From: Nemertoderma westbladi
Lineage: Eukaryota; Animalia; Xenacoelomorpha
Reading direction: 5' to 3'
DNA: 64,000 nucleotides
NCBI GenBank assembly: GCA_032718475.1
Contig: JAUCBJ010007366.1
Span: forward strand, 47,340 to 111,339
Shown here: one piece after another, positions 1-57,190 of the stretch
Layout of the letters: each line of letters begins with the position of its first letter
How positions within the stretch are numbered: position 1 is the first letter of the stretch
The notes under the pieces: generated by a model
What the model was told of the DNA's origin: nothing
Seen by the model: the letters and a program-made list of their open reading frames with translations, nothing else
Database searches by the model: none
Program-made: the position numbers and the translations under genes

Positions 1-2
1 CA

Positions 3-527
3 TCGAGTCCCGATTCCCTGGAAGCGCTAACACCCGCGCACTTCCTACTGAAGAAACCTGTAGCCATGCTCCCACGATCGGAGATTGCCGACGGAGACGA
101 ATACTGCCGTCGAACTTGGCAACTTATGCAGTTGCTATCCCGTCGTTTCGCTGACCATTTCGAGAAACATTATCTGCCCACGCTACAACTTCGAACTAAG
201 TGGTTTGCGCAGCAAGAAAACGTCAGCGCCGGAGATATGGTGCTTATTGTAGATCCAGACCTCCCACGTAAACGGTGGCAGACAGGTCGTATCATCGAGA
301 CCCACATCTCAGATGATGGTTTAGTACGCTCGGTAGAACTCATCGTCATGCGGCGTAACTTCAAGAAGCCAGGCATAATCTTTGAGACGCAACAACTCAA
401 TCGCCCAGTTGGTCGTTTATGTTTACTGGAAAGAGACAGAGAACTCTCCGGGAACTATGGAAGGCAAGACACTCTTCCCATGACCACCTCCCTAATTCCT
501 CAAACATCTAGGGACTCCCCAACGTAA
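3..527 (+). CDS. C-terminal end of BEL/Pao retrotransposon Pol (integrase C-terminus, DUF5641-like); 5'-truncated by the window edge
   Basis: Frame is open from the window start: EALTPAHFLL...RRTWQLMQ...KHYLPTLQLRTKW...GDMVLIVD...W.TGRII...DGLVRSV...RPVGRLCLL, the characteristic BEL/Pao integrase tail. Confidence 0.9.
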   Translation, partial: SSPDSLEALTPAHFLLKKPVAMLPRSEIADGDEYCRRTWQLMQLLSRRFADHFEKHYLPTLQLRTKWFAQQENVSAGDMVLIVDPDLPRKRWQTGRIIETHISDDGLVRSVELIVMRRNFKKPGIIFETQQLNRPVGRLCLLERDRELSGNYGRQDTLPMTTSLIPQTSRDSPT

Positions 528-1075
528 CAGCGTCTGGAGTGGGTGTATGACTATATTATTTTATCTATTTGTTATATTTTTATATGCGAACTTTATTATG
601 TACTTTATTATAATCGTTTTTATTCAATTTTATTTAGTAGAATGTTATTTTAGTGATTATTTAGTAGATTAGTGCAATATATTAGTGTTTATTACATACG
701 TAATTACTTATAATATATATTTAGTGCGACGGCGAGAAAATAATTATTTTTCTCTATCCTTACTGTCCGTATCATATTATAAATACGTGACTACAGTAAG
801 ATGAAATGTCCGTACTTCTTAAAGTACAATAAAGCCACTACTATATTCAAGTATTATTGGTAGGCAGAGTATTAGGAATGCAAAGTTCAGATCCTCGTGT
901 CTCGGCTAAGCCAAGCTCTGGGTAGACCTTGGAAACGACTTGCCTCTTCACACTGACATTGCTTCGTGCGATATTGCTCTTCTACCTTATATTAAATAAT
1001 ACATATAGTAGCGTGATGTCCATATAACAGTAGCGTAAAACGCAAATAAATCTGTTAAACCTTTTGACCATCTGT

Positions 1076-1350
1076 AATTCTAGTCGATTAAGATATTGCG
1101 GCACCCACCGATATACTTGAAAGACCAATTCTAGAATCAGTGGTTAACGTCCCCAGACAAGTTCTGGAATAAATCGGTGCCCATCTTAAATATTAATTTA
1201 ATATTTATTAAAATCTGTAAAATTCAGATCCGTTAACAATTCTAGTCGATTAAGATGTCGTAGCACTTACCGATACTCTTAAAAGACAAATTTCATAGAA
1301 TTAAGGATCCTATGTCCCCAGACCTGCTCTGGAATCAAATTGTGTCAATT
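1076..1350. repeat. Two diverged direct repeats, period ~163 bp, in the BEL internal region
   Basis: AATTCTAGTCGATTAAGAT...CCGATA...AAAGAC...GTCCCCAGAC...CTGGAAT occurs at ~1076 and ~1239. Confidence 0.85.
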
Positions 1351-2154
1351 TTAACATCAAATAATAAAATTCACGGGAATAAATTCAAATTCATATTTTA
1401 AATGAATTTCATAAATTGTCATTTTGTACAATTTATAACATTCCCAAAATTCCATTAATTAATAGATCATGGGAGCGGAGATTCATCCTATTGAGTGTAT
1501 TAGAGTGCGAGAATCTCCAACATATAGTCAATAGCCGATAAAATTAATAAAATCATGCATAAAGAGGATATTGACAATTAAAGAATTATTATTAAATAGC
1601 ATCCCAGATCTGTATGCATGAGAATTACCCTAATTCTACCGCTAGCATTCCATAATGTCACCATAGCAACACCCACGCTAGAATTAGAAGCAAGTTAAAA
1701 GAACAATAGAAAGCTTGTCCCATTGCATAGCATAGAGAATATAGCACACTGTTAGTATCCAAGGATACACAGTAATAACGTGACATTCTGGAAGGCACTG
1801 ACTAACGGACAAATGGCCTGTATGTGTGCAGTTGGTGACAGTTGTGTGGAATTTGTGCGTTTATAGGTGAATGTTACTGCTAAAGTATGTTTACAGTAGC
1901 TAGTCGCAATTGTAAAAATAGCCCAACTCTCCTATAGAAAGAACCTAAGTGGATCCAAGCCTTTGGGACGGACAGTGGAGTGACTTGTGCCGGTTATCGT
2001 TGTCGTGCTGTTGCTACATGTTGGCGTAAACACCGCGACGACGGTACATCGGCGCTGAGAATCCCACTGTCCGGGGGCAAAGAGAAGTAGGCAGCGACGC
2101 CCGCTCGCCTAAAATATAAACTTATTTGGATATTAATAAACTCAGATAGCAGAT

Positions 2155-3423
2155 ATGACGGAGTTGATAGAAGATGATCTTGGTATTAGGGAGCGATATA
2201 CTCTACCTTTACAAGCATTTGTGGATAGCTTAATACGCGGTGAAGCCGATCCAACCATTACGGAGGACGATGGTCGTTATATCGAACCGCCGATGTCCCA
2301 AGAGCAACTTGCACGTGAATTGGACTATCGAAAATTCACCACTCGCTATACGAATCGTAATGGTACGTATATGGACTTCTTAACTACCGGCCATCCTATC
2401 GATTTGCATGATACGGACGATGTAGATACAGAGAGGGAAATGGTTCTATTTAAATATCATACCCAGCGGAGTCGTAACGATAAACCGAGAATAGATCACG
2501 AAAATTCTATTCGTAATCGACTGGAAAGAGAAAACGTTGAAGAACCGGATAAACGCATCGACTTCAACGAATACCTAGAATTTTTGAGAGAAACCTATCT
2601 CAACATCGCCAGTCAGCAGAACTTAGAGACTCGATATCCTCAAGGTATACATCACGACCCTGTGGTAGAACTCAAACGGCTCTATTTCACTATGATGTAT
2701 CTTACCGCCGATCGTCCACTACCTGTTATCCCGGATAGTTTTGAACAAATGGAAGAATACTGCAAAACTGGAGAACGATCACCCGCGTTTCCTCTACAGG
2801 ACGTACGTCTTTGGTATTATTGTGACGAATGCCCTAGACCCAACCAACAAACTGAAAGACATAAACATCCGCGGAGACGTTGCGCTAAACACAGCTTTAC
2901 GCGTTACACTTACGGGAGTTTCGAGCGAAACCTGTTCGACATACCACCTACGATCGCTCGTCTTAAACGATCACTGAATAAACCCATGATCAGAGTTCCG
3001 GAATACTCGGTCAGGCCTCCTCATTCCCTAGTGAGACCTCAAACTCTTGATCCTAACAGTATCACTGATCCTCCCGAACTATATTCCCTGTTCAAAGACT
3101 TAGTGTTACCCGAACAATTAATCGGTGGTGCTCCGGTAGTGGGTTCGTTAGACATCCGCCCATCCTACTTAGCCGGATTGGGACGCGGGCAGCTAATATC
3201 GCCCTTTGATCCTTACAATCGTCCAGGATTAAACCCGATGCAACCCGCCACAGAAGTCGAGGAGAGCGTTATAAGAAACGCTTTAGACGCCATTCGACAG
3301 AAAATCGGAAAGGGAACACAAGATTGTTTAGAGAAACGGAAATTACAACAACAAGTCCATTATTTGAAGAAGAGAAAATACAAAGATATGGAAATGTGGA
3401 GACGTATACCACTCGGCACATGA
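2155..3423 (+). CDS. Accessory ORF-A, 422 aa, function unknown; one possible Zn-binding cluster (CDEC...H.H...C..H)
   Basis: Long intronless ORF with an ATG start; no family recognised; no transmembrane segment visible. Confidence 0.7.
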   Translation: MTELIEDDLGIRERYTLPLQAFVDSLIRGEADPTITEDDGRYIEPPMSQEQLARELDYRKFTTRYTNRNGTYMDFLTTGHPIDLHDTDDVDTEREMVLFKYHTQRSRNDKPRIDHENSIRNRLERENVEEPDKRIDFNEYLEFLRETYLNIASQQNLETRYPQGIHHDPVVELKRLYFTMMYLTADRPLPVIPDSFEQMEEYCKTGERSPAFPLQDVRLWYYCDECPRPNQQTERHKHPRRRCAKHSFTRYTYGSFERNLFDIPPTIARLKRSLNKPMIRVPEYSVRPPHSLVRPQTLDPNSITDPPELYSLFKDLVLPEQLIGGAPVVGSLDIRPSYLAGLGRGQLISPFDPYNRPGLNPMQPATEVEESVIRNALDAIRQKIGKGTQDCLEKRKLQQQVHYLKKRKYKDMEMWRRIPLGT

Positions 3424-5657
3424 AGTATAGTGATCTCCCTGACGCTAACCAATGCGCCACCTTGTGGCATCCAGTAGGGATGACCCTAGAGAACGCCACC
3501 AAGGAGTGGAATGAAACCCTTAATGTTATTGAGATGTATGGAGTTGTCACCTACGATAATGAAGGTAGCGTTCCGGTCGGAGAACTAGGAACTACGCGCA
3601 TGATCCACATACGCGGATTAGCGGGTTCTACCCACTTGTTTACTCGAGCGTGTTCCGACGTGATTGATTATTCTTTTGAAACTCTCACCGAAACACAAAA
3701 GAATCTCCGACATGGACAATTCGAACTCGCGCAGCGTTACGTCATTGACACCGAACGCAAACCGGCCATGGGCATCGATGGATCGATGTTACCCCAGCCC
3801 GTACTCGAGATGTTATTCAACGAAAGAATCCTTAAAATCGGCTCAGCTGTTTATGGAGATCTCCAAAACGACTTTCGGAATATGGAGAACATTCCATACC
3901 CTTTCGTTGATACTCAGTTGATTGCTCCCTGGGCAGAAGGTCGAGGTTTCTTCCACACCATGTATGCTAATACGTCTAGCAACATTACAAAGGTGCAACG
4001 AACTTCCATCGGACATCTTGCCTTTCAGGAATACGGATGGAATTTCAAAGTCGGAAATCCCATTAACTATCAACAAGTATACGGAGACCATTATTCTCGA
4101 TTATACTTTGATGGACCATTGACCGCACCTGGCGCCGTGTATAGCTTCATGAGTGTTCCACTCCGTCCCTCTTTAGCTATATACACGATCTTTGAAAACA
4201 CCGCACTTGCCGGTTGGCTAGCCGATGTGTGCAGTCGTACTATACGCGCCCATCCATTAATACTTGGGACCAAACTCGCTAAGCTAGATGAACATAATAA
4301 ATTCATCCATTTCGAATGTTTCCGGCGATTTTTAACCCCGTTCCGCAACATGGATAGCCAATTTAAAGACCGCGCTTTGACCAAACTCAGCCTAAGAAAC
4401 TCAGCTGCAGAGAAGTTGGATAGCGCTGGATTCGCCATTTTCAAAGAGATTTGTATATCGAACTTGCACTCCTCTGTTATACAAAGACCTCGAATCCCCA
4501 CAGGTTATTCTGTCGTGGAAATTCAGACAATAGGTCCCCCTGAAGAGACAGACGCACCCACTTCAGCTATGCACTTGGAAGACGAACCAATATGTCTAGA
4601 ATCTGAAGAGATTCAGCCTATCGCGCCCCGGAACAGCGACAACGATTACATCATAGAATGGTATCAAGGTCCACAGTGTCTCACTGCGTACGATTATCGA
4701 CATGCCAACTATGTTTCTAGGCAACGTTGTCGGTTATGCGCATCGAGAGACCACGATACGCCCATGGACACCAACGTCCGCTGTTCCTATTTCCAAGAAC
4801 AACCGACTATGGAAATTTATTGCGCATATTGCAGACTCAATAACTTGCATATCTTTGCGGTTTGCCCTCAATTTATGACTCAATGTCACCATTGTCAACT
4901 AAAGGGACATGCTAGTTTCGACTGCCCTTTTAATCACGATTTGGAAAGCGTAGATGAAATGATCACACTACGTTACATCAGAGCTTGGGAAGCGAACGCT
5001 GATTTACATTGTGATTCGCGCCATCGCTATTATCCCGGACGCGCTTACGAAGGAGTTTATGCGTTCCATCCTTATCTATTCGCTTCGGTTGAACAGAAAT
5101 CACGCATATCAAGTTACGAGCTACTGAAGCGCGTTGGAGAATGTATTTCAACCAAATTCGTACGCAAATTTCTCAGGAGTGTTAATCCTAGCGACCTTCA
5201 TTCCTATAACTTAATCAATTATATCCGTCAGGATCCGGACTATGGAGACTTGTTTGTTAACTCACACCCCGAGTTACAGGAAGTATATCGACGGCCTTAC
5301 GAATACCGAGCCCGCGAACGCGAGTTGGAAAGGACCATTAAACCCCGGAGGTTTCTAACTGCCTATGGTCCACCCACGGCCCTCGTTCAGACCACTCGTA
5401 AAGGACCCGTAAGAGCAGCTGTCTTGAAACGAGCTCTCAAAGCCGTTAGACCCCTCTCCCCGGACGTTGATGTCAATCAACCCGGTACTTCGACTGGCGG
5501 ATACACCGACCATAATCCTACACCCTCTGATGCAATCATATTGCACCCTTCACCCAGGAGTTATAGCCCTCCTTGTAAAGTGGCTCGCCCCAAAGAGAAA
5601 AGGACTCTGGCTAGCTTTAAGAAACTGCGTAAACGCCGTCCGCGCAAGAAAGACTAA
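3420..5657 (+). CDS. Accessory ORF-B: DEDDy-like (WRN/EXD/RNase D-type) 3'-5' exonuclease domain, three CCHC-type zinc knuckles and a basic C-terminus
   Basis: ExoI-like VVTYDNEG; ExoII-like LEMLFNERILKIGSAVYGDL; FVDTQ and SIGHLA; ExoIII-like IYTIFE; knuckles CRLCASRDH, CAYC..H..C and CHHCQLKGHASFDC; tail KKLRKRRPRKKD. First ATG at 3420 overlaps the ORF-A stop. Confidence 0.7.
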   Translation: MKYSDLPDANQCATLWHPVGMTLENATKEWNETLNVIEMYGVVTYDNEGSVPVGELGTTRMIHIRGLAGSTHLFTRACSDVIDYSFETLTETQKNLRHGQFELAQRYVIDTERKPAMGIDGSMLPQPVLEMLFNERILKIGSAVYGDLQNDFRNMENIPYPFVDTQLIAPWAEGRGFFHTMYANTSSNITKVQRTSIGHLAFQEYGWNFKVGNPINYQQVYGDHYSRLYFDGPLTAPGAVYSFMSVPLRPSLAIYTIFENTALAGWLADVCSRTIRAHPLILGTKLAKLDEHNKFIHFECFRRFLTPFRNMDSQFKDRALTKLSLRNSAAEKLDSAGFAIFKEICISNLHSSVIQRPRIPTGYSVVEIQTIGPPEETDAPTSAMHLEDEPICLESEEIQPIAPRNSDNDYIIEWYQGPQCLTAYDYRHANYVSRQRCRLCASRDHDTPMDTNVRCSYFQEQPTMEIYCAYCRLNNLHIFAVCPQFMTQCHHCQLKGHASFDCPFNHDLESVDEMITLRYIRAWEANADLHCDSRHRYYPGRAYEGVYAFHPYLFASVEQKSRISSYELLKRVGECISTKFVRKFLRSVNPSDLHSYNLINYIRQDPDYGDLFVNSHPELQEVYRRPYEYRARERELERTIKPRRFLTAYGPPTALVQTTRKGPVRAAVLKRALKAVRPLSPDVDVNQPGTSTGGYTDHNPTPSDAIILHPSPRSYSPPCKVARPKEKRTLASFKKLRKRRPRKKD

Positions 5658-5735
5658 CTGTTTAGAGTATTTACGTATATTAGAAACTGTGATTTTGTAT
5701 ATTTTATAGACTCAAATCCCATTTTCTGGGAGCGG

Positions 5736-6400
5736 TGTAAAAGCTTCTGTGGGATATAACTGGCCCTTTTGCTTCGCAATCCAGTTTCCCCCCTAGGCGC
5801 TGGAATACTCTAAAAGGCTCTATAACTATATATATATTCCCCTCGCCCGCAAGGTACCGTTATAGGTGTTTTAACGGACATAAAAGTCATTCTGCTATAT
5901 ACGTGTTTTGGCGGACATGGTAAGGCAAAAAACCTGCAATGCACCAAATACCTTTCACAGCTTAGCCGTGATGATTCATATTACGACATCTAACAGCTGG
6001 TTGCTGACATGGAAACAGCCATTGGCCACATGGTTCTTTGTTTAGCTTAAGCCAATCAGAGCGATTTTTTCTGTCGATGTGGAGCTTTTCGGCCGATCAT
6101 ACTAGGAGTGTTCAGTCTTACTGTTTTTTGTGATACTTTGTGTTGTTGCTTTCTAGGCCAGGAACACCGGCTCTAGAGTCAATTCGTTTCATACTTTAGA
6201 AGAAACATTAGTAGGCTTAAATTATAGAGCGTATAACTGTTATCACATCATATATCAATTTATATCAACTTGTTTCTATTCTTGCATTATCGGTTCAACA
6301 TACATTATTATACTGCTATTTACTGTTGTGTTTTGGTTGAATATTATTTGGAGAACATATATAAAGAACCCAAATTTCCCAATTTTCTTGATACACTACA
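5736..6400 (+). repeat. Putative 3' LTR (TGTA...TACA, ~665 bp) preceded by a PPT-like tract
   Basis: TTTTCTGGGAGCGG|TGTAAAAG at 5736 and ...GATACACTACA at 6400; no second copy in the window to confirm the ends. Confidence 0.5.
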
Positions 6401-6499
6401 GGTTAGAGAGGCGGGTTATATATAGCGATTGCGACTTATATTGTTGTGGTTTGTAGTGAATTTAATGCTATTTGGTAAGCCCTACATGAGTCAATTGCT

Positions 6500-6985
6500 G
6501 TTCGCTTTATATATGATAAAATTCATTGACGGTCGGCAAATTAGTGAGCAGTATTGTGTGTTACCGGTAGTGTGCCTGATAGTGATTGATAACTAAGCAT
6601 TTCCTAAAGAATGCGCCTCATACGTGAATCATAAGCCTTACCGACTTACCGTTGTGATTAGTATAAGTCATATCTCTGTTTACTTAGATAGAGCGCCACG
6701 TCCTAAAGGAACTGTTAATATTTCCCGAAAGTGAATAATATTAGTCAGAAATTATTTATTAACGATCAATCGAATAATACAGTAAGCTTACACTGCAATA
6801 ATAATCTAAGCCCTCAGAATCCAGTCTCCCGGGTATATCCAGCGGGTGAATGGACGCGCACTAGGCTGGCTTCTGCTAATGTTGTGTTTATTGGTATTAA
6901 ATATTTGTCATCTTCTAAAGTCTATTTATAAACCAAAAGACATATAAATTTTGGCAGGTTAAACTGCTAAAGGTCTTCAAAAGCG
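6500..6985. repeat. Dispersed repeat with a diverged reverse-complement copy at ~33940-34390
   Basis: Shared blocks such as GACGGTCGGCAAATTAG, AGCGCCACGTCC.AAAGGAACTGTTAATATTTCCC and TTGGCAGGTTAAACTGCTAAAGGTCT. Confidence 0.8.
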
Positions 6986-7850
6986 CGTACAAATAGTACA
7001 AATGAGTACAAACGAGTGAGAAACGCATACAAAACGTGTATACCAGTGTAGCTGTGTATAGTAAGTATACACTACACTTACACTACACTTGTATACAAAT
7101 ATAATTATTTGTAAGCAAATGCAACGGCACCTGGAATATGCGCCGCTACAGTGTCAATCACTAGCGGCCATGGTCTGATGGTTCTGTGGTCAGTATGAAA
7201 TGATTGACAGAACTTTGATTCATGTAGATTTTGACTGGCATACAGTACAAGTATAAATAGGCTACAGTTCGTATAATACAATATAATGCAATAGGCCTAC
7301 ATATTATGTAGTGGGTCAGTGGGTAGATAAAACTCCTATACTGTAACTGTGATTCAAAATTTAGGTCATAGTCTTAAAGTAGCCCATATACTGCAGTACT
7401 GAAGGATAGACTGTATGCTACGTTATGTGGGCTATGTATGTCTGTATGTACGCCTCTATCTGCAACTTTATTGAGTTCTCCCTCTGTAATTTTGCGGGCT
7501 TGGGACCGTTTTTTGTGTTTTTTGAAAACAAAAAGCTGCAATAAAACTCATAAGATTGTATTGTAATACTCTCTGACTGTCTGACTGCTAGATCAGCCCC
7601 CGCTCAATGCATGGCTCGCCCCACAATCAGAAAATGCTTTGTTTTATTTTGCACATCATGTGCGCCACTCTAAACGATTTGAACTACACTTGGATACACG
7701 TTTTGCAAGCGTTTCTCACTCGTATGTACTCTTTTGTACTATTTTTGCACTCTTTTGTACTATTTTTGCACTTTATTGTACTCTTTTGTATTCTTTTGTA
7801 CTACTATATTGTACTATTTTGTATTTTTTTGTACAAATTCGTCGGTACAA
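6980..7850. repeat. Inverted-repeat (foldback-like) pair with TTTTGTAC subrepeats
   Basis: GAGTACAAACGAGTGAGAAACGCATACAAAACGTGTAT (~7004-7041) is approximately the reverse complement of ~7694-7731. Confidence 0.65.
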
Positions 7851-12999: not shown

Positions 13000-13213
13000 T
13001 CTCTCACAGCATCAATGAGGAATTCTTAATGGAAGTTCTGTACCCCGAGGAAGTGGCATACATCTACAGACTGAGGCCATCTAGGAGTTTCGGTGGATAT
13101 TTTAATTCTACTCTGGAGGGAGTAGAACTTATACCGGTTGAACCGGCTCACGGCTGCAGCTCATATATTAACAATGTTGACGTTAATGGACATGTGGCGC
13201 TTATAGACAGAGG
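13000..13213 (+). CDS. PRADC1: PRADC1 coding exon 2 (protease-associated domain)
   Basis: TTTAG acceptor; EVLYPEEVAYIYRLRPSRSFGGYF...LIPVEPAHGC...VALIDRG; GG|GTGAGT donor. Confidence 0.9.
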
Positions 13214-14006
13214 GTGAGTGGACATGTGGCGCTTATAGACAGGGTGAGTGGACATGTGGCGCTTATAGACAGAGGATGAATAGACATTGGCGCTTCTAGA
13301 CAGAGGGTGAGTGGACATGTGGCGCTTATAGACAGAGGGTGAGTGGACATGTGGCGCTTATACACAGAGGGTGAGTGGACATGTGGCGCTTATGGACAGA
13401 GGGTGAGTGGGCATGTGGTGCTTATAGACAGAGGGTGAGTGGACATGTGGCGCTTATAGACAGAGGGTGAGTGGACATTGGCGCTTTATATTGACAGAGG
13501 GTGAGTGGACAGGGCATGTGGCGCTTATAGACAGATGGTGAGTGGACATGTGGCGCTTAAAGACATAGGGTGAGTGGACATGTGGCGCTTATAGACAGAG
13601 GGTGAGTGGACATGTGGCGCTTATAGACAGAGGGTGAGTGGGCATATGGCGCTTATAGACAGAGGGTGAGTGGATTGGTGGCGCTTATAGGCAGAGGGGG
13701 AATGGACATGTGGCGCTTATAGACAGGGTAAGTGGACATGTGGCGCTTATACACAGAGGGTGAGTGGACATATGGCGCTTATACAGAGGGTGAGTGGACA
13801 TGGCGCTTATAGGCAGAGGGTGGATGGACATGTGGCGCTTATAGACAGAGGGTGAATGGACATGTGGCGCTTATAGACAGAGGGTGAGTGGACTGGTGGA
13901 GCTTATAGATAGAGGGTGAGTGGACTGGTGGCGCTTATAGACATGAGGGTGAGTGGACTGGTGGTGGCGCTTATAGTTAGAGGGTGAGTGGACTGGTGGC
14001 GCTTAT
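13188..14006 (+). repeat. 32-bp minisatellite (~25 copies) built from the end of PRADC1 exon 2 plus its splice donor
   Basis: Unit GGACATGTGGCGCTTATAGACAGAGGGTGAGT. Confidence 0.95.
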
Positions 14007-14246
14007 ATACATACAGAGGAGCGAATTAGTTCAGTAGCTGTGTACTACAGGTTATAAAACATGAATAAGCGCTATAAAACACTTAATAAGGAAAAATTAA
14101 AAAATACAAATTCTTTATAAAATTCCAATAAAATTTTGACTGAAAATTAAAAACTTGGTATTTTCACATCGGTGGTATTTCCAATTTCTTTATTATTTAA
14201 TTTCAAGTAGGCCTAATCCAATATCCAAATTAACCATTTTTTGCAG

Positions 14247-17179: not shown

Positions 17180-20100
17180 TTATCGTAGAAAGTCAATTCG
17201 ACCATGTTGTATACTCTCCAGGAGATGAAATCCGGATGCTCCTTTTTTAGTCAAACAATCTGCTATTTGCATGGAACCTGGGCACCAACGCACATATTCA
17301 ATTTCACCCTTCTCTAGGGATTGTTTTATAGCCCCAATATCGATTCGTAGTCGCTTGTCATCAACCAATTTCGTTGAGTGAATGGCTTCAACGACACTCT
17401 TGTTGTCGACATACGCGCGGATGGGTATCTTTAAAGAATCACCATCACCAATTATTTCTCTAATGACACCTCTTGTGTATATCGATTGCTCTAGACCTTC
17501 TTGAAGACTTAACGCCTCTGCAGCTATCGTAGACCGGACAACGCGTTTAATCTTGCAAACATTCCAAGAAAGAGGACAGGAGCGATTATCTATGCCAACT
17601 AGATACAGAACAAATGCCATAGTACTGCTCATTCCGTCTGCTAGATTAGCTAATGAAGCATCAGTAAATAAAATTAGATACCAATTGATTGGGTTACCTA
17701 AGTTTGGGAACACAATGAAAGCATTTCTATCTTTGACATTTAGCAAAATTTTTCTGATTCGCAATAAGTGTTCCATTCGAGCATCCCTGAAGTGTGTGCT
17801 AAGATCTATTAGCTCAAAGGACCAGTCTGGGCGAGACCCTTGCACGAGCCAATTAAGTTTACCAACTAGAGACCGGTACATGGTAAGGTCAGATGGGCCT
17901 AAATTTTCATTTTTTGTGGACTTGCTCAAGGATAATGGTATGTCTTTTATCTCAATATTCTTTAAGTATGATTCCTGGTTTAAAATTATCTCATTAGGAA
18001 GCTGACATAATTCAAAACCAACGTAAGTAAATTTATGAGCTGCTTCCTTTCCCGCAAGAAATATATTGGTGAGATTCTGTATAACTTTTAACTCGAAGTT
18101 TTGATTTCCTGCATGCAGGAAATCGTCAATGTGTGAGACTAGAATACCGCAAAGATTGCCATCCTCTCTAAAATAAAATAGAGCAGGGTCTAATGGAGAT
18201 TGGCTGCAACCGAGGGTCAACATCTCTTCTACCACACTATTGTAGAACTGACGAGCTGCGTCATTCAAACTATACAAGCACTTATTTAATCGCCAAATAT
18301 ATCCCAACGGCGCATCAGCCTCCTGGGGTGGATTGAGGAAGACATCACGTACTAGGGATTCACCTTGGAGAAAGGCAGATTTTATGTCAGTTGTTTTTAG
18401 AACCCATTTTTTACTGGAAACGATAGCCAAAAATGTGCGAAGTGTACATTTTGCAACTGTAGGAGAGTCTGTAGCTACCTCAATTTGCTCTTCAAATCCT
18501 CTGGCAACTAGACGAGCACGAATCTCTGTTCCCTTATGCCATAGAACCCACCGCGTCGATATGCATGGTTGTCCGTTGAAAGGTAGCTCTTGATAGACTT
18601 CAAAATCTCTCAATTTTTGTAGCTCCACTAATTTTGCTTGTTGGCACTCAGGAGAAGACTGCTCTTTTCTGGGAATGAGAACTAAATTTACTTCATTAGT
18701 CGCATCACCTTGGATCCAAGGGTTAGAACCAAAGTCGATGCACCTCTGAACTCCATTAGACTCCTCCACGTTAAACCAATCCCTATACTTTCCTGATGCT
18801 TTACCAGCACGACCCATAACAGTCGCTGTAAGCCATTGCTGTGTGTCATGATCAAGAAATTTAATACATTGTGCTGAATGTGGCAAGGAGTTCACGTTAT
18901 TTGTGGATTTTTGTTTGGACTTTAGATTGTTTGAGTTATTGTCTACATTTGTGTCTTTGTTAGATGGCACAATTGTCGAGATCATTTCCTGAAGACCGCA
19001 ATTGTTGATTCCAGTTGAACTGGTTGGTACAGTATGCTTTAATACTGGTGTCAGAGCTGCTGTATTTCTTATTGTGCCACAATTGTTATCCACAAGTTTG
19101 GAAACTGCCTCTGGCTTGAACTCATCAGGAACTTGAACTGCGGGAATTTGTTCAAGTGAATTGATAGCAATGAGACGATTAGGAGAAAGACGAATGAATA
19201 CACCTCCGTGACGCACGAACACCACCTTGCCATCCTGAAAAACCACTTTGGCAGGGCCCAGCCATCTATTTTTACTATCATGTTTATAATAAACAAGATC
19301 GCCATTCTGAAAAGTCTGTTCTGATGCTCGTACTTTATGTCTCAAAGCTCTACGAATACGCTCATCAGCTTCAGATTGTACAAAAGCTTCTCTAGTTGCA
19401 TGAAGGGCGTTCAAATGGTTAGCAAATGCTTTACTTGTGGTTGAACCTTCCAGTGCTGGGGGATTGGAAGTCATAGTACATGGTAATTTAGGATTTTTGC
19501 CGAACACAAGTTGATGACTGCTGAAACCGTTCCACATCTGGAGAGAGTTTTTAGCCATATTTGCCCAAGGCAATAAGATATGTTCTGAGATCTGAGGATT
19601 ATCCTCTTTAAGTTTACTGAGCATACGGTCTGTAATAGAATGATTTCGCTCACATAACCCATTTTGATAAGGTGCTCGAGCAGCTGTGGTATGTAAATTT
19701 ACATTTAATATTGAAGCTACTTCCCGTATTTCATCTGAGTTGAATTCCCCACCATTATCACTCATTATACCGCCCATAATACCGAAAATAGAAAGCCAGT
19801 TAGTCATCATTTTATCAACAATGACACAAGGTAATTTACTTGAAACGAAGACGGATACAGTATAGCGAGACCATACGTCTACCATATGGAGTATCCACTG
19901 TTTTTCCCAAACCTTAAGATCGATAGCCACAACTTGATTAAATTCACTTGCCATTGGTAGTCCAACAATGGGAATCGGTGGAGATTTTTTGAATCGCTTA
20001 CAAACTTCACAATGTTCTACAATATCGTCAACTATAGGTTTACAACTATCTTGCCATACCTTAGCATCTTTTAGGAGATTTATCAGTTTTTTGGGTGATG

Positions 20101-20719
20101 GATGAGCAAATTGACGGTGTAATTTCAGAATAGTTTGATGAAGGTGCTTGTCATCCATTGCAGTAAAGTTAACTGCACGGACGTAATTTTCTGGTATATC
20201 TTTCATAATTGGAATACAGTAATGTCCAGTTGATGTAGTATTTAAAGATATGCGTCTGCCAAAAACTGTGGCTTCATCAGAATTCAAGTCCAAAGTCATT
20301 TGTGCGCGCTTCATAGATTCCCTGGAAAGGAGTAGTGGAATATCGGATTCTACAACATCTGTTCGAATTTGAACATCCCGCCCGGCTATAAAAGCTGGAA
20401 TTAAACATTCAGAAATTGACCTCAGCTTGGTGCCACCACCAAATTTGAATATTTTGTGACCCTCATTCAATTGAATTTTGGATCTGTAAGTATCGCATAA
20501 ACTGGAAATGTAGTTGTTGATCCAATCCTTTCCACATACAGTGCTGGTACAGGCGCTATCCAATACAGCACAATTGGAAGCTTCAACGCCAAGTTGATAA
20601 ATCTCAGTGGATGATGAGGTCGTAGTGAACACACTTAGCAGAACATCTTCACAATCATACTCCTCCAATATTTCCGATGGGGTCGTCTTTTCAGACAGGT
20701 TTAGTTCTGCAGGCATCAT
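17180..20719 (-). CDS. Copia Pol (protease, integrase, RT, RNase H)
   Basis: AVLDSAC (PR); LHRQFAH..CEVC and IDLK/SDNGGEF/NGLCER (IN); ARLVARGF, DIKSAFLQG, SHIDDFL (RT); FTDAS/AAEAL/YVDNK/IADCL (RH). Confidence 0.95.
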   Translation of the reverse strand: MMPAELNLSEKTTPSEILEEYDCEDVLLSVFTTTSSSTEIYQLGVEASNCAVLDSACTSTVCGKDWINNYISSLCDTYRSKIQLNEGHKIFKFGGGTKLRSISECLIPAFIAGRDVQIRTDVVESDIPLLLSRESMKRAQMTLDLNSDEATVFGRRISLNTTSTGHYCIPIMKDIPENYVRAVNFTAMDDKHLHQTILKLHRQFAHPSPKKLINLLKDAKVWQDSCKPIVDDIVEHCEVCKRFKKSPPIPIVGLPMASEFNQVVAIDLKVWEKQWILHMVDVWSRYTVSVFVSSKLPCVIVDKMMTNWLSIFGIMGGIMSDNGGEFNSDEIREVASILNVNLHTTAARAPYQNGLCERNHSITDRMLSKLKEDNPQISEHILLPWANMAKNSLQMWNGFSSHQLVFGKNPKLPCTMTSNPPALEGSTTSKAFANHLNALHATREAFVQSEADERIRRALRHKVRASEQTFQNGDLVYYKHDSKNRWLGPAKVVFQDGKVVFVRHGGVFIRLSPNRLIAINSLEQIPAVQVPDEFKPEAVSKLVDNNCGTIRNTAALTPVLKHTVPTSSTGINNCGLQEMISTIVPSNKDTNVDNNSNNLKSKQKSTNNVNSLPHSAQCIKFLDHDTQQWLTATVMGRAGKASGKYRDWFNVEESNGVQRCIDFGSNPWIQGDATNEVNLVLIPRKEQSSPECQQAKLVELQKLRDFEVYQELPFNGQPCISTRWVLWHKGTEIRARLVARGFEEQIEVATDSPTVAKCTLRTFLAIVSSKKWVLKTTDIKSAFLQGESLVRDVFLNPPQEADAPLGYIWRLNKCLYSLNDAARQFYNSVVEEMLTLGCSQSPLDPALFYFREDGNLCGILVSHIDDFLHAGNQNFELKVIQNLTNIFLAGKEAAHKFTYVGFELCQLPNEIILNQESYLKNIEIKDIPLSLSKSTKNENLGPSDLTMYRSLVGKLNWLVQGSRPDWSFELIDLSTHFRDARMEHLLRIRKILLNVKDRNAFIVFPNLGNPINWYLILFTDASLANLADGMSSTMAFVLYLVGIDNRSCPLSWNVCKIKRVVRSTIAAEALSLQEGLEQSIYTRGVIREIIGDGDSLKIPIRAYVDNKSVVEAIHSTKLVDDKRLRIDIGAIKQSLEKGEIEYVRWCPGSMQIADCLTKKGASGFHLLESIQHGRIDFLR

Positions 20720-20744
20720 AGAATCGTGAAATTTGTGATCATTA

Positions 20745-21677
20745 TTAGTGTAGTCTGTAGTGGACTTTCTCCAGATTTTCCCAACTATCAGGACAATCTC
20801 TTAAAAGATGTCGAAATGAACCACAGCAGCGACAAGTAAGAGGTTTTCCATCAGTACCAGCGGGATTCACTTTCCTGTCTTGGGCTCGAACTGCACTAAT
20901 TCGGTGACCTGAACAGCCCAAATTACCAGCATCTTTCTTATAACTGGGAGGAACATACCGCCTTGTGGATTCAAAATGTCCAACGTCCCTCCGAACTCTA
21001 CCACCACCACCACCACGTTGCCAATTAGGGTTACTCCTAGAGGAATGATAGTAACCAGCAGCCGCTAGTGCCTCTTCATTTTGGGCAAGAAAGGTTGGTT
21101 CAAGTTTAATGGCCGCACTTTGTAATCCGGATATTCCCTTGCTAATGAATTTTTTTAAAGACTTTTGTGCTTGATCATATAATGTCACCTTCTGAGAATA
21201 ATCCATTCTGGTGAGTACTAACATTTTTTCTTCTTTAGAAATGGCAGATCTCCTTAATAATTTAAAGGCCAAAATTTCTGGAGGGAGACTCATACCAAGT
21301 CTCTTTATTCGCTGATATTTCTGATCAAACATTGAAACATATTCTGATATATTGCAAATCTTGTCTCGATGGAAATCTTCGAAGTCCTCAAACTTTTCGA
21401 GACAATCTTCTAAATCGTCTTTACCTAACTTCTCATCTAGGTACTTTATAAGTTCACCTAGTCCATCCTCGCCCTTTAAATCTTCAATGGAAATCTCATC
21501 GAATACTTTCTCTCTAATCTTAGAATCCCCTTCCTCTGGAAGGGATAATGCAATAGCTATACCCTGTTTAGATTTAGGAAGATCAGTTATTTCTCGCCAA
21601 GCTAATAGTTCTCGTTTATAACGCTCATAACTCTTTGAGTCTTTCTTAAACTCAGGTGGATTCAATCTTAACGCCAT
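20745..21677 (-). CDS. Copia Gag with CCHC knuckle
   Basis: NPPEF..KSYERYKRELLAW...KQGIAIALSLPE; CRCCGSFRHLLRDC. Confidence 0.92.
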   Translation of the reverse strand: MALRLNPPEFKKDSKSYERYKRELLAWREITDLPKSKQGIAIALSLPEEGDSKIREKVFDEISIEDLKGEDGLGELIKYLDEKLGKDDLEDCLEKFEDFEDFHRDKICNISEYVSMFDQKYQRIKRLGMSLPPEILAFKLLRRSAISKEEKMLVLTRMDYSQKVTLYDQAQKSLKKFISKGISGLQSAAIKLEPTFLAQNEEALAAAGYYHSSRSNPNWQRGGGGGRVRRDVGHFESTRRYVPPSYKKDAGNLGCSGHRISAVRAQDRKVNPAGTDGKPLTCRCCGSFRHLLRDCPDSWENLEKVHYRLH

Positions 21678-21818
21678 CTCAACATGTATTTTTTTTTACA
21701 TACCAACACGATAGTAAATTTCGCAATGCCTCCACGCTACGCAATACTGAGTGTAAATTTACGCAATACACTATCTTTTTTTTTAACGCTAAAAAGAAGG
21801 ATTAAGATTGGTCGGTAC

Positions 21819-24787: not shown

Positions 24788-25470
24788 ATTAATCCGACAC
24801 GGTTCACATTCACGGGTTTACAGGGGACTATCAGGGCATTTTTACAACTTTATTGGTCAGAATTAATTATTGACATGGTTCTGTCCTAAACTGAAAAATG
24901 GTTCTAGTGATTATTATTAAATAATATTTATTTTTAGATACTTACTTATTAAATAGCTACTTTATTTTTATATGTAAATCTCCAAGAGCTGCCTTTATAT
25001 TGATTTTATTATTATTTTACGATAACATTTGTATCGTTGATTGGACATACTTTTTTTACTCCAAACCAAATACTTTATCATTATCTTAATGCATCTATTT
25101 GGATTATGTAGCGAACTGCAGTATTATTATGCATTTTATATGTTAAAATAATTACAAATGAGGGGGGGGGGGGGGTGTGGGAATTTTTACGCAATCAAAA
25201 TTCATTCCTCCAGGGAAAAATCGACGCAAATAACAGCTGATTACTCCCAAAAATAAAACCTGTTCTATTGACTTCAGTTTGATGTTTTGGTTAGAAATTA
25301 TAATAACGCGCCACAAACTGTAATCTGCTCATTTACCTTATTTATATTTTTAACATTAAGACGAGATATTAATTCGCCGCGGTTTTGGGGTCAAGTTTTA
25401 AAACCCCCTCCCCCTCTGACAGTGTCTCCATAATTAACTCTATAAAATATACTTGTCAACCGGTTTTATC

Positions 25471-28400
25471 CTATCACCTCGCCAGCTATCCCCTAGGTAA
25501 CCCCACCAGCTATTGCTATCCCCTAGGTAACCCCTCCAGCTACCCACTAGGTAACCCCTCCAGCTATCCCCTAGGTAACCCCTCCAGCTATCCGCTAGGC
25601 AACCCCTCCAGCTATCCGCTAGGTAACCCCTCCAGCTATCCCCTAGGTAACCCAGCCAGCTATCCCCTAGGTAACCCCTCCAGCTACCCACTAGGTAACC
25701 CCTCCAGCTATCCCCTAGGTAACCCCTCCAGCTATCCGCTAGGCAACCCCTCCAGCTATCCGCTAGGCAACCCCTCCAGCTATCCCCTAGGTAACCCCTC
25801 CAGCTATCCCCTAGGTAACCCCTCCAGCTATCCGCTAGGCAACCCCTCCAGCTATCCGCTAGGCAACCCCTCCAGCTATCCGCTAGGCAACCCCTCCAGC
25901 TATCCCCTAGGTAACCCATCCAGCTATCCGCTAGGCAACCCCTCCAGCTATCCCCTATGTAACCCAGCCAGCTATCCCCTATGTAACCCAGCCAGCTACC
26001 CCCTAGGTAACCCAGCCAGCTATCCCCTAGGTAACCTAGCCATCTACCCCCTATGTAACCCAGCCAGCTATCCCCTAGGTAACCCAGCCAGCTATCCCCT
26101 AGGTAACCCAGCCATCTATCCGCTAGGCAACCCCTCCAGCTATCCGCTAGGCAACCCCTCTAGCTATCCGCTAGGCAACCCCTCCAGCTATCCCCTATGT
26201 AACCCAGCCAGCTACCCCCTAGGTAACCCAGCCAGCTATCCCCTAGGTAACCTAGCCATCTACCCCCTATGTAACCCAGCCAGCTATCCCCTAGGTAACC
26301 CAGCCATCTATCCGCTAGGCAACCCCTCCAGCTATCCGCTAGGCAACCCCTCCAGCTATCCGCTAGGCAACCCCTCCAGCTATCCGCTAGGCAACCCCTC
26401 CAGCTATCCCCTATGTAACCCAGCCAGCTACCCCCTAGGTAACCTAGCCATCTACCCCCTATGTAACCCAGCCAGCTATCCCCTAGGTAACCCAGCCAGC
26501 TATCCCCTAGGTAACCCAGCCATCTATCCCCTATGTAACCCAGCCAGCTATCCCCTAGGTAACCCAGCCATCTATCTCCTAGGTAACCCAGCCAGCTACC
26601 CCCTAGGTAACCCAGCCATCTATCCCCTAGGTAACCCAGACAGCTATCACCTAGGTAACCCAGCCATCTATCCCCTAGGTAACCCAGCCCTCTATCCCCT
26701 AGGTAACCCAGCCAGCTATCACCTAGGTAACCCAGCCATCTATCCCCTAGGTAACCCAGGCAGCTATCACCTAGGTAACCCAGCCATCTATCCCCTAGGT
26801 AACCCAGCCAGCTATCACCTAGGTAACCCAGCCATAGCTATCACCTAGGTAACCCAGCCAGCTACCCCCTACGTAACCCCTCCAGCTATCCCCTAGGCAA
26901 CCCAGCCAGCTATCCCCTATGCAACCCAGCCAGCTACCCCCTAGGTAACCCAGCCAGCTATCCCCTAGCCCTAGGTAACCTAGCCAGATATCCCCTAGGT
27001 AACCCAGCCACTGAGCCAACTATCCCCTAGGTAACCCAGCCAGCTATCCCCTAGATAACCTAGCCAGCTATCCCCTAGGTAACCCAGCCACTGAGCTAGC
27101 TATCCCCTAGGTAACCCAGCCAGTTATCCCATAGGTAACCCGGCCAGTTATCCCCTAGGTATCCTAGCCAGCTATCACCTAGGTAACCCAGCCACTGAGC
27201 CAGCTATCCCCTAGATAACCCAGCCACTGAGCCAGCTATCCCCTAGGTAACCCAGCCAGCTATCCCCTAGGTAACCCAGCCATCTATCCGCTAGGCAACC
27301 CCTCCAGCTATCCGCTAGGCAACCCCTCCAGCTATCCGCTAGGCAACCCCTCCAGCTATCCGCTAGGCAACCCCTCCAGCTATCCCCTATGTAACCCAGC
27401 CAGCTACCCCCTAGGTAACCTAGCCATCTACCCCCTATGTAACCCAGCCAGCTATCCCCTAGGTAACCCAGCCAGCTATCCCCTAGGTAACCCAGCCATC
27501 TATCCCCTATGTAACCCAGCCAGCTATCCCCTAGGTAACCCAGCCATCTATCTCCTAGGTAACCCAGCCATCTATCCCCTAGGTAACCCAGCCATCTATC
27601 CCCTAGGTAACCCAGCCAGCTATCACCTAGGTAACCCAGCCATCTATCCCCTAGGTAACCCAGGCAGCTATCACCTAGGTAACCCAGCCATCTATCCCCT
27701 AGGTAACCCAGCCAGCTATCACCTAGGTAACCCAGCCATAGCTATCACCTAGGTAACCCAGCCAGCTACCCCCTACGTAACCCCTCCAGCTATCCCCTAG
27801 GCAACCCAGCCAGCTATCCCCTAGGTAACCCAGCCAGCTACCCCCTAGGTAACCCAGCCAGCTATCCCCTATGCAACCCAGCCAGCTACCCCCTAGGTAA
27901 CCCAGCCAGCTATCCCCTAGCCCTAGGTAACCTAGCCAGATATCCCCTAGGTAACCCAGCCACTGAGCCAACTATCCCCTAGGTAACCCAGCCAGCTATC
28001 CCCTAGATAACCTAGCCAGCTATCCCCTAGGTAACCCAGCCTCTGAGCTAGCTATCCCCTAGGTAACCCAGCCAGTTATCCCATAGGTAACCCGGCCAGT
28101 TATCCCCTAGGTAACCTAGCCAGCTATCACCTAGGTAACCCAGCCACTGAGCCAGCTATCCCCTAGATAACCCAGCCACTGAGCCAGCTATCCCCTAGGT
28201 AACCCAGCCAGCTATCCCTTAGGTAACCCAGCCAGCTATCCCCCAGGCAACCCAGCCATCTATCCGCTAGGTAACCCAGCCAGCTATCCCCTAGGTAACC
28301 CAGCCAGCTATCCCCAATGCAACCCAGCCAACTATCCGCTAGGTAACCCAGCCAGCTATCCCCAATGCAACCCAGCAACTATCCGCTAGGTGCCCAGCCA

Positions 28401-28619
28401 GCTATCCCCTAGGTAACCCAGCCAGCTATCCCCTAGGTAACCCAGCCAGCTATCCCCAATGCAACCCAGCCAACTATCCGCTAGGTAACCCAGCCAGCTA
28501 TCCCCTAGGTAACCCAGCCAGCTATCCCCAATGCAACCCAGCCAACTATCCGCTAGGTAACCCAGCCAGCTATCCCCAATGCAACCCAGCAACTATCCGC
28601 TAGGTAACCCAGCCAGCCA
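25471..28619. repeat. 21-bp tandem satellite (~150 units) with higher-order duplication
   Basis: Unit CAGCTATCCCCTAGGTAACCC(CT/AG)C-type; the same variant order recurs at ~26.8-27.2 kb and ~27.7-28.2 kb. Confidence 0.97.
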
Positions 28620-29285: not shown

Positions 29286-30455
29286 TTAGTAATTAAAGAA
29301 ATCTCTCTTAACACCGACACTGAGGTTGGAAAGTCGGTAGGTAGACTGATTACCAAATAAATTCATTAAAATAATATTCAATAAACTACCATCGTATCTA
29401 TGACAACAGCTGAACTCCTTAACAACGCGATTTTCTGGGGCGGCCCAGTGGCACTGTATGATGGATCCCGGGGGTGCCAGACAGTCCTCCTCCAGGGCAC
29501 AGAGCACTGCCCACTTCAGCACAGGTTTTATGAGGTCTCTATTCCGCAGTATTATAAGGCCCCCCGCAATCAATACGTTATCCTTCATTGTTCTAATATC
29601 GGTGGGGAAGTATGAGTACATGAGTGGATTGGTGGTCGCGTATATACTGTGTGCGGGGTTCAGTGACAGAACGACAGGACTCTCGCACGAGGCACAATCA
29701 ATAGAGAGCTTGATATGTTCTAAAGTCGATTCCTTAAATACAATGGAAGAGTCTAGCCACACTAGGTAGTCAAACTGAGATGCTAATTCTGCTAATATTA
29801 ACAGTTTCCACCGGTATTCCAATAGATTTCCGACATATCTCGGGTATTTATCGAATGGGAACGGAACTGCAATGACCCATGAACCGAATCGCGATTCTAT
29901 ATCGGCTATTTGTCGGCGGGATAAACCCAAACTGTATAATCTTAGATGCTGGTACTGGTGGGGTAGCAGGATGTGTAGGTTGGAAAGTAAACGTGTTACT
30001 TCGTGGAGGTGGTCTGGCGAAGCGGCGGTTACGAACGTTAAGTCGGAAGAGCTTGTAGAAAACCGAGAGTTTCCCAACAAACCTAAACGATTAACAGTTG
30101 AAAGATGACGACAGCTGAACGGTTTACCGGTAACGCTCATGTTGGCGTTCCTATAACATACTGATTCCGCATTTAATATACGGCCTTCGCCTAAGTTACA
30201 GTAACATATTCCTCTTTCTGAATTGCGTGTCCAACTTTTGTTATAACCAAAGTCACTAAGATGACATGCAGCGTTGTAGACTACAAACCTCTTAATAACT
30301 TCAGATAGGCCTATATGATAGGCCCTATAGTACACCGTTGTTAGCAACAACGGTGTACTCAGGATAGCTGATGCCAATATTATCCTGAACAATATCTTCC
30401 GATATCTCATTGGGATTACCTTTTGTATCAGAAAACAAAGTCTTAAAGCACCCAT
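29286..30455 (-). CDS. DUF1647-like type II membrane protein (putative glycosyltransferase-like)
   Basis: N-terminal hydrophobic anchor; TFVTAAS..H, Y.LGL, FPFDKYPRYV..L.EYRWK, VWLDSS, HSIYATT..MYSYFP, LCALEEDCLAP.GS, CHRYD.S..N. Confidence 0.8.
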   Translation of the reverse strand: MGALRLCFLIQKVIPMRYRKILFRIILASAILSTPLLLTTVYYRAYHIGLSEVIKRFVVYNAACHLSDFGYNKSWTRNSERGICYCNLGEGRILNAESVCYRNANMSVTGKPFSCRHLSTVNRLGLLGNSRFSTSSSDLTFVTAASPDHLHEVTRLLSNLHILLPHQYQHLRLYSLGLSRRQIADIESRFGSWVIAVPFPFDKYPRYVGNLLEYRWKLLILAELASQFDYLVWLDSSIVFKESTLEHIKLSIDCASCESPVVLSLNPAHSIYATTNPLMYSYFPTDIRTMKDNVLIAGGLIILRNRDLIKPVLKWAVLCALEEDCLAPPGSIIQCHWAAPENRVVKEFSCCHRYDGSLLNIILMNLFGNQSTYRLSNLSVGVKRDFFNY

Positions 30456-30543
30456 TATTACCTTTTTTCAGCTCAGCTGTTATGTTTAATTATAAAAGGT
30501 CAACAGGTAGCTGGTATCTATCTACTTGCCTATCATTGTATCC

Positions 30544-40920: not shown

Positions 40921-41339
40921 TTTAGTTAAGAAACAAAATATTAGTATTTAATTATGTTATATAAGGGCACCTTTTAAGGGCAGTAAGGGCGCACTTGTTT
41001 GCGATAAAAATTGAAAAAAAATTAAAATATTTTTTACTGATTCTGGATTACAATTCAATGGCGATTTTAAAACAGAAAACGGCATAACGAGTTCTTAGTT
41101 CTCTATAGCTGTTTGTCTGCCTATCATCAGTACAGCATACGCATTGTACTGTACTGTAGGCCTACATTTTTCTCTATAGGACATTTCTTGTTTTGTGATC
41201 AGATCACATTTCTAATGTCAGTTTTAATAGATTCTAGAATGTCTGTCTTTCTGCCTGCCTGCATGTCTATATTATTAAATATTTATTTTAAAACATTGAT
41301 TATTAAATATATTATGGATCATCAGAGTTTGACAGTGTT

Positions 41340-53254: not shown

Positions 53255-53296
53255 TACCGTATGGCCATTTCACCCTCGCGGGCGTCTTCAGCGGTA
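53255..53296 (-). ncRNA. Minimal type I hammerhead ribozyme in the Penelope pseudo-LTR (terminal copy)
   Basis: TACCG CTGAAGA C GCCC-GCGA-GGGT GAAA TGGCCA TA CGGTA; palindromic stem III. Confidence 0.85.
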
Positions 53297-57119: not shown

Positions 57120-57190
57120 AATTACAGGATTAATAAAGGCAAGGAAGGGTCTTTCACCACGTGGATATATAAAAAATGAAGTTAATTATT

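Follow-up and report, generated by a model that had tools for sequence, protein, structure and literature searches.

Near the left end of a 64,000-nucleotide (nt) stretch of DNA, the window to which all positions below refer, two intact open reading frames (ORFs), ORF-A and ORF-B, form a cassette that is present in many copies, is under selection by the signs described below, and is part of an element whose long terminal repeat (LTR) starts at 5736. The window likely carries the 3′ half of an LTR retrotransposon of the BEL/Pao type that exists in many copies. Judging by its motifs, ORF-B very probably contains an exonuclease domain that is DEDDy-like in identity, which is followed by three zinc knuckles, and we consider it probable that the cassette lies inside the pol-bearing element and is expressed by splicing. 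What such a protein might do for a retrotransposon can be approached by analogy, and we tentatively propose, at somewhat less than even chances, that ORF-B helps the element RNA to escape small-RNA silencing by the host. Weighed together, this architecture and this function make up what we regard as the best explanation of the cassette, to which we give nearly even chances.

Two intact reading frames in a many-copy LTR element

An initial annotation, made from the letters alone, had placed intact coding sequence without a transmembrane (TM) segment at 2155-5657, and both parts of that description hold. ORF-A (2155-3423; all features of the element are on the forward strand) encodes 422 amino acids (aa) from its first ATG at 2155, in a stop-free frame of 2140-3423; ORF-B (3420-5657) encodes 745 aa from its first ATG at 3420, in a stop-free frame of 3210-5657. 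These frames are far longer than any in 200 shuffles of 2155-5657, where the longest stop-free run reached 206 aa and the mean was 117. The best 19-residue hydropathy values are 1.2 (ORF-A) and 1.1 (ORF-B), below TM level, and by such hydropathy windows, used without a signal-peptide predictor, neither protein displays the signal peptide and TM anchor of an env-like product. ORF-A is composed of an acidic N-terminal part, a Cys/His cluster at aa 223-246, a Pro-rich part and a basic C-terminus. It has no match in Pfam, NCBIfam or PHROGs and no relative in a word search of near lengths (the scan of 1.84 billion representatives covered ORF-B only), and AlphaFold modelled its residues 1-265 with a predicted local distance difference test (pLDDT) value of 32.9. 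An assignment of ORF-A to zf-MYND was rejected, its Atlas matches of 0.82-0.83 being at chance level. The exact sequence of either ORF is absent from the protein collection, and related loci were found neither in viral contigs nor in JGI metagenomes.

The start of ORF-B and the stop of ORF-A share the four letters ATGA (3420-3423), an overlap that the initial annotation did not remark upon and that we predict, by analogy, to be a site of termination-reinitiation. Overlapping stop/start reinitiation is used by caliciviruses and by influenza B, for which AUGA is named, and SART1 relies on a related overlap (PMC10275272). The ATGA overlap is alike here, whereas local folding near it is modest (z -1.99, with 8 of 200 shuffles equally good) and the motif UGGGA, which would resemble a TURBS (termination upstream ribosome-binding site), is missing from the preceding 140 nt.

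Region 1-6991 is a many-copy repeat. Six of the seven listed sequencing runs, from four studies, contain part of 1-6500; none is recorded as RNA, which for X4 is a guess at most, and one may itself be the source of the window. When contigs of runs X1, X3, X4 and X5 were aligned to window 1-7500, the numbers placed were 54,043 (X1), 14,251 (X3), 295 (X4) and 659 (X5), every bin to 7000 was covered, and many variants were present. Across 7000, summed depth, which is not a copy number, falls from 798,262 to 6,898 in X1, from 428,082 to 3,527 in X3, from 2,514 to 44 in X5 and from 39 to 0 in X4, an overall drop of 50- to more than 100-fold.

ORF-B is followed by a polypurine tract (PPT; 5728-5735), 7 of whose 8 letters are purines and which fits the BEL/Pao tract of about 10 nt, and then by a 3′ LTR of 1,256 nt (5736-6991), whose ends, TGTA...TACA as read on this 3′ copy, fit the TG...CA pattern of BEL/Pao. 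The initial annotation had suggested an LTR from 5736 to 6400. Its start is borne out in X5, where two contigs end exactly at 5736 next to flanks that differ from each other (agreement 0.68, median 255 nt) and a third contig has the LTR start without the PPT. The proposed end has to be given up: in X3, X4 and X5, contigs cross position 6400 and reach 6522-6540. We place the right end at about 6991, where depth drops after 7000 and where a homologue at 33939-34388 stops at the same ACA; this end is uncertain by a few bases, and a GTACA-rich inverted-repeat element starts there. The LTR contains a single AATAAA/ATTAAA hexamer, an ATTAAA at 6896-6901, which is a candidate polyadenylation signal. 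Two other proposals for this region were dropped: 6495-6991 as a separate DNA transposon, since contigs of X3, X4 and X5 span 6376-6403 to 6522-6540, and a TATA-like box at 6358, since it is not preserved in variant copies.

The homologue at 33939-34388 (reverse strand, 450 nt) is a 71% match to the LTR's 3′ part (6507-6991) and is a piece of an older related LTR. To the right of the LTR end, 6960-7051 and 7684-7775 form GTACA-rich inverted arms, 82% complementary, which resemble a miniature inverted-repeat transposable element (MITE); the LTR element may have inserted into the left arm of this MITE-like element. A Twister-P1 ribozyme-like match (7476-7547, reverse strand; 42.8 bits, E 5.3e-7, under the gathering score of 67.2) lies within the same flanking inverted-repeat element.

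Both ORFs bear a sign of selection among copies. Synonymous changes account for 8 of 10 variants in ORF-A (p 0.001) and for 7 of 11 in ORF-B (p 0.018); jointly, 15 of 21 are synonymous where about 29% would be expected (p 6.5e-5), and none creates a stop. These variants come from the best-supported 40 of 1,276 rows, of which 3 pol rows and 16 non-coding rows were excluded, so that the figures give a sign of selection from selected rows and not a dN/dS ratio. One indel in 12 falls in coding sequence (p 6e-4, for the best 12 of 141 indel rows). The initial annotation had asked whether many copies would keep pol and both ORFs together under selection; the copies are many and the synonymous excess is present, and the linkage to pol is read from the layout of the locus, as set out further below.

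A predicted DEDDy-like exonuclease domain with zinc knuckles

ORF-B is ordered as an exonuclease domain, a linker, three knuckles, a helical part and a basic tail. The initial annotation had described it as a DEDDy exonuclease-zinc knuckle protein, and several weak, convergent results agree with that call. The RNase D-like domain (3507-4235; D46, E48, D147, Y255 and E259) contains the motifs by which it had been recognised, YDNEG (aa 45), LKIGS (138), GDLQ (146), VDTQ (163) and SIGHLA (196). It also contains an ExoIII motif, PL-x6-Y-x3-acid, that had been overlooked; here the Tyr is kept and the last Asp is changed to Glu. Since its ExoIII thus reads Y255-x3-E259 instead of the Y-x3-D of DEDDy enzymes, we class the domain as a DEDDy-like variant. 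The PF01612/RNase D class, which includes WRN, EXD2 and MUT-7/Nibbler, provides the closest frame of comparison: ORF-B has in common with RNase D/DNA_pol_A_exo1 (PF01612) the DxE of ExoI, the Asp of ExoII, the DTQ and the PL-x6-Y-x3-acid of ExoIII, and differs from RNase D in the Glu of ExoIII, in an insertion of about 35 residues behind the third strand and in its knuckles; no HRDC domain was detected.

A search of 1.84 billion representatives returned a single relative of ORF-B, the environmental protein P0001, which is 648 aa long, aligns with ORF-B over 170 aa at 28% identity (E 1.1e-6) and derives from a single 9,449-nt contig in ENA. Its domain order is that of ORF-B, namely an exonuclease-like domain, a linker, three knuckles and a basic end, and it likewise has Glu at the last ExoIII position. 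When ORF-B, P0001 and bacterial RNase D are put in register, D46/E48, D62 and D31 coincide in ExoI, D147, D130 and D88 in ExoII, with the DTQ motif aligned too, and Y255/E259, Y229/E233 and Y154/D158 in ExoIII. The ExoI register rests on motif matching, with which one of three automatic alignments agrees; the other two slipped and misplaced ExoI because of the approximately 35 extra residues in ORF-B.

Other comparisons point in the same direction. In the Atlas, whose thresholds are uncalibrated for protein parts, 25 of the 30 matches to ORF-B residues 1-300 carry PF01612, the best named one at 0.92 with 169 shared features. NCBIfam RNase D matches ORF-B at E 0.0024, far under its cut-off, and a tblastn search of 72,556 plasmid records with ORF-B brought up nothing but an rnd gene (E 2). 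The RNase D encoded by this gene reaches 18.2 bits with a profile built from ORF-B and P0001, where 999 shuffles give 1.1 or less, albeit for a protein pre-selected as ORF-B's own best match. In Pfam, the ORF-B exonuclease domain has no match, and P0001 matches PF01612 at E 0.2. RNase D went unmatched by the P0001 exonuclease part in the plasmid records, PDB sequence searches with ORF-B returned no exonuclease, and word searches of near lengths with ORF-B or with the two-sequence alignment found no relatives, the alignment search missing P0001 itself. The remaining 5 of the 30 Atlas matches are unnamed, mostly fungal clusters at up to 0.94; the three best (0.93-0.94) are unnamed proteins of 213-214 aa, mostly from Basidiomycota where the source is known, and are possibly an unannotated DEDDy group.

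The three CCHC-like knuckles of the initial annotation were found at aa 437, 468 and 489 (span 437-502; 4728-4925), with the spacings C-x2-C-x4-H-x9-C, C-x2-C-x5-H-x4-C and C-x2-C-x4-H-x4-C. They match zf-CCHC_3 at E 0.01, and a two-sequence knuckle profile matches retroviral nucleocapsid chains best (E 0.0015); AIR2 chains appear in the PDB searches at E 0.06-0.95. The basic tail is likewise present, residues 641-745 being 24% Lys plus Arg. The triple box of BEL gag proteins reads CX2CX3-4HX4C, CX2CX2-4HX4-5C and CX2-4CX3HX4H (PMC554778). ORF-B as a nested BEL/Pao gag was rejected on this account: its knuckles are spaced differently, and the third one closes with Cys.

Probable linkage of the cassette to pol

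The window opens within a pol gene whose last 174 codons, the integrase C-terminal region, occupy 3-527 and are open at the window edge. A Pfam scan matches this frame to DUF5641 (PF18701) at E 2.4e-21, which we take to be a mark of BEL/Pao integrases; the pol end has no PDB sequence match and no relative in viral contigs. Of the order PR-RT-RH-IN that characterises BEL/Pao pol, the window covers this last part. A non-coding spacer of 1.6 kb separates pol from ORF-A and contains an imperfect direct repeat (1076-1354), two copies of about 115 nt that are 73.5% alike and at which run contigs show deletion joints (1173-1340 and 1189-1359). Since no copy of the 5736-type LTR is found between pol and ORF-A (528-2154), its 5′ counterpart has to be located upstream of pol if the locus is no chimera. 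We infer that pol and ORF-A/ORF-B are likely in one element.

It is conceivable, instead, that a BEL element ends here with an LTR starting at 544, and that ORF-A and ORF-B belong to a separate non-autonomous unit, with the LTR 5736-6991, which became fused to it at this locus or in one subfamily. Three features speak for such an arrangement and thus count against a single element. A second purine tract followed by TGTA (536-547; tract 536-543) comes directly after the pol stop and looks like the 3′ PPT/LTR junction of a BEL element; in X1, X3 and X4 depth is above that of pol over 751-2000 and below it over ORF-B; and X5 has an LTR-to-cassette junction without pol. The observations that bear on an alternative start at 544 are indirect. 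Against the separate unit stands, besides the missing LTR before ORF-A, the finding that among the best 24 of 1,460 loose ends none lies at 544 and none marks the end of such an LTR. Contigs also bridge 849-1186 and 1598-1946, joints span 1173-1630, and in X3 a contig whose depth is 4,429 leaves out 521-592 (the letters in between are not given). Moreover, the LTR-to-cassette junction falls on splice-like sites. On balance, we regard a separate unit as quite unlikely. In a single element, the tract at 536-547 would be a candidate central PPT, or a relic LTR start; central PPTs are known from Ty1, HIV and EVADE (PMC7197481).

A splice-like junction and putative non-autonomous derivatives

How might genes downstream of pol be expressed? 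An X5 DNA contig of depth 493 joins 6401, inside the LTR, to 19 letters that correspond to about 1938-1955 (matched by eye, with few differences; the contig direction is not printed) and then to 1956. The left side of this junction is a predicted splice donor, CAG/GTTAGA (6399-6407), which would act from the 5′ LTR; of the 79 GT in the LTR, it is one of the four that reach 7 or more of 9 consensus matches. At that place, a donor-like AG/GT can also be seen by eye in a diverged contig of X4. The right side of the junction is a predicted acceptor, a pyrimidine tract and TAG ending at 1937 (1924-1937); of the 58 YAG sites within 528-2155, it and 4 others tie for the top pyrimidine share. In a random join GT..AG would be expected in 0.4-1.1% of cases, and it was seen in none of 8 other deletion joints tested. 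The junction, which the initial annotation had missed, suggests that a spliced accessory mRNA was reverse transcribed and reinserted, and this appears to be the simplest reading of the letters. Between the acceptor and ORF-A there is a single ATG, which opens a three-codon upstream ORF (2018-2029).

A deletion with the joint 2523-4577, which removes 2524-4576 and with it the exonuclease domain, occurs in X1, X4 and X5 and is deep in X5. In X5, the joints 6401-1956, 2523-4577, 5110-5271 and 5893-6186 are accompanied by high depth over 1938-2523, 4577-5110, 5271-5735 and the LTR. The pattern, pieced together joint by joint, suggests an amplified non-autonomous derivative that is much deeper than the intact ORF-B region.

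Discussion

How might such a cassette benefit a retrotransposon? We envision that splicing of a transcript from the 5′ LTR would join the donor at LTR position 6401 with the acceptor at 1937 and remove gag-pol, and that ribosomes would translate ORF-A, some of them reinitiating at ATGA, so that less ORF-B than ORF-A would be made. Guided by its basic tail, ORF-B might enter the nucleus or RNA granules, where its knuckles might bind single-stranded RNA and its exonuclease might trim unprotected 3′ ends, be they those of small-RNA precursors or of cleavage fragments of element RNA. Made at low level, ORF-B could in this manner blunt host small-RNA or RNA-surveillance pathways in trans; an action in trans is conceivable because derivatives without the exonuclease domain still multiplied. 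The scenario builds on the roles of DEDDy enzymes in small-RNA pathways (PMC5408684), on the knuckles and on the basic tail.

A number of observations weigh against this scenario or the architecture on which it builds. The 5′ LTR, the primer-binding site (for tRNA-Arg or tRNA-Gly in BEL/Pao), gag and the target duplication of the element lie beyond the window edge, flank evidence for the LTR start comes from X5 only (there is none in X3 or X4 among the best 18 of 136 loose ends), and the variants behind the sign of selection were selected rows. The splice-like junction is a single contig in a single DNA run, and it is possible that it arose by DNA deletion at a 2-nt AG repeat (microhomology). 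The missing UGGGA motif counts against the scenario as well. As for the exonuclease, single sequences give no DEDDy-family match above a curated cut-off in Pfam or NCBIfam, the RNase D of the profile test was pre-selected, and AlphaFold, run on ORF-B 1-347 without an alignment, produced no usable fold (pLDDT 30.5). By its sequence, the replacement of the last catalytic Asp by Glu may render the activity of ORF-B weak or absent. Finally, where they discuss the role of DEDDy ORFs, the authors of the rotifer study leave it undecided (PMC5408684).

The Glu at ExoIII, which both known members of the family share, would suit a different role, in which ORF-B is a weak or dead RNA-binding adaptor that, with ORF-A, exports or transports unspliced genomic RNA, much as CERV does for Cer1. 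Consistently, RNA binding by DEDD derivatives without activity is known from EXD1 and Maelstrom (PMC5408684), CERV is made from a spliced mRNA and is needed for genomic RNA export (PMC10309623), and the basic tail would fit as well. However, two proteins of 28% identity have Asp, Glu or Tyr at all five catalytic positions, which would be more typical of a working site, and we therefore consider an adaptor to be distinctly improbable. By published description, CERV of Caenorhabditis elegans Cer1 is, as ORF-B would be, an accessory LTR-retrotransposon protein from a spliced mRNA; its abstract does not describe a nuclease (PMC10309623).

Alternatively, ORF-B might act within the virus-like particle, into which its knuckles would bring it together with the genomic RNA, and trim the primer, RNA ends or the 3′ ends of complementary DNA (cDNA), or remove mismatches made by the reverse transcriptase (RT), thereby aiding the copying of an unusually long genome. 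The best match of the knuckle profile, to retroviral nucleocapsid chains, is in line with this idea, as is the length of the element, which we infer to be 13-14 kb compared to 4.2-10 kb for the family (PMC8742986). DEDDy enzymes act on structured RNA and on single-stranded DNA, and among the roles that have been suggested for the rotifer ORFs, 3′-end processing comes first (PMC5408684); a benefit in cis would, in addition, easily explain purifying selection. A separate spliced mRNA, however, gives the protein no direct way into the particle, and the derivative lacking 2524-4576 exists in X1, X4 and X5, although helper particles could supply the protein. We judge a role in the particle to be unlikely.

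It is highly improbable, by comparison with all of these, that the ORFs are captured host cargo, or cargo derived from a long interspersed nuclear element (LINE), with no role for the element. Tandem knuckles are typical also of LINE ORF1 and of AIR2-like host proteins, and the AIR2 matches of the knuckles would fit such an origin. Rotifer env and GDSL ORF3s show no departure from neutrality (PMC5408684). The cassette, in contrast, is 3.5 kb of intact sequence, its copies show an excess of synonymous variants and few indels in coding sequence, and it has stop-start coupling and splice-like signals.

DEDDy ORF3s are found in the Juno and Vesta LTR retrotransposons and in the Athena/Terminon elements of bdelloid rotifers (PMC5408684; also PMC5718144, PMC6431247, PMC6338049), as the initial annotation had noted for rotifer retroelements; nematode retroelements with such ORFs, which it also named, are not mentioned in the passages cited here. 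Compared by published description, ORF-B has much in common with them: it is located between pol and the 3′ LTR without being an env gene, has a DEDDy domain of the RNase D kind, lacks a TM segment and keeps the catalytic residues with one Asp-to-Glu change, which makes ORF-B DEDE and the rotifer proteins DEED (PMC5408684). The rotifer ORF3s are expected to be expressed from spliced messages (PMC5408684), as we expect for the cassette. They differ in that the host of ORF-B is likely BEL/Pao and theirs gypsy-like or Penelope-like, and in that ORF-B combines its domain with three CCHC knuckles and a basic tail, is the second of a stop-start pair and shows a synonymous excess among copies. With Belpaoviridae (PMC8742986; PMC3118150, PMC554778) the element shares the DUF5641 integrase C-terminus, the PPT, the TG...CA LTR and many copies in an animal-like genome, whereas the profile of the international virus taxonomy committee (ICTV) lists gag, pol and env only (PMC8742986). 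The word 'exonuclease' is absent from the main text of PMC3118150, PMC9094657, PMC8556966 and PMC2774666, the supplements of which could contain such elements unannotated, and no BEL/Pao element with an exonuclease gene was found in the literature searched, which was mostly open-access and did not include Repbase or GyDB. The theme of an exonuclease accessory gene is thus already known from other retroelements; within that literature, the BEL/Pao setting, the DEDE-knuckle fusion, the stop-start pair and the retro-copied splice form appear to be new. Nematode Cer elements may have been described with an RNase D-like domain, in which case the BEL/Pao aspect would be less new.

This case bears on how animal LTR retrotransposons stay active under control by Piwi-interacting RNAs (piRNAs). 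It extends the rotifer DEDDy ORF3 theme of 2017 to a likely BEL/Pao element and adds to it an RNA-binding module and signs of selection, and ORF-B, as one defined protein whose catalytic residues can be named, lends itself to assay. If small-RNA suppression proved true, ORF-B would represent an enzyme-type counter-defence of a retrotransposon; if proofreading did, it would bear on the limits to retroelement length. A more elaborate picture, rather unlikely as a whole, would be that of a complex BEL/Pao element with a spliced two-gene mRNA, whose ORF-B founds, together with P0001, an unrecognised family of DEDE-y exonucleases with three nucleocapsid-like knuckles and actively suppresses the production of piRNAs and small interfering RNAs (siRNAs) or proofreads for RT, and whose spliced RNA was retro-copied into a non-autonomous LTR family.

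Other features of the window

The content of the 64-kb window, named by eye as satellites, a copia-like element and tandem Penelope-like units, looks like repeat-rich animal DNA. On the reverse strand, 17180-21695 holds a copia-like gag-pol in two overlapping frames of 316 and 1,206 aa, with integrase before RT by eye, and 53134-64000 holds three head-to-tail units of 3,936 nt, 99% alike, each with a 1,085-aa RT and GIY-YIG-like frame that appears Penelope-like by eye. An intronless frame of 393 aa with an N-terminal hydrophobic segment (29286-30467, reverse strand) lies between repeats and presumably resembles a glycosyltransferase-like DUF1647 protein. A further reverse-strand frame of 594 aa (39163-40947) has a coiled-coil-like first part and ends in a 27-nt tandem repeat. 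Satellite arrays with units of 32 nt and 24 nt occupy 13182-14026 and 25366-28450, respectively.

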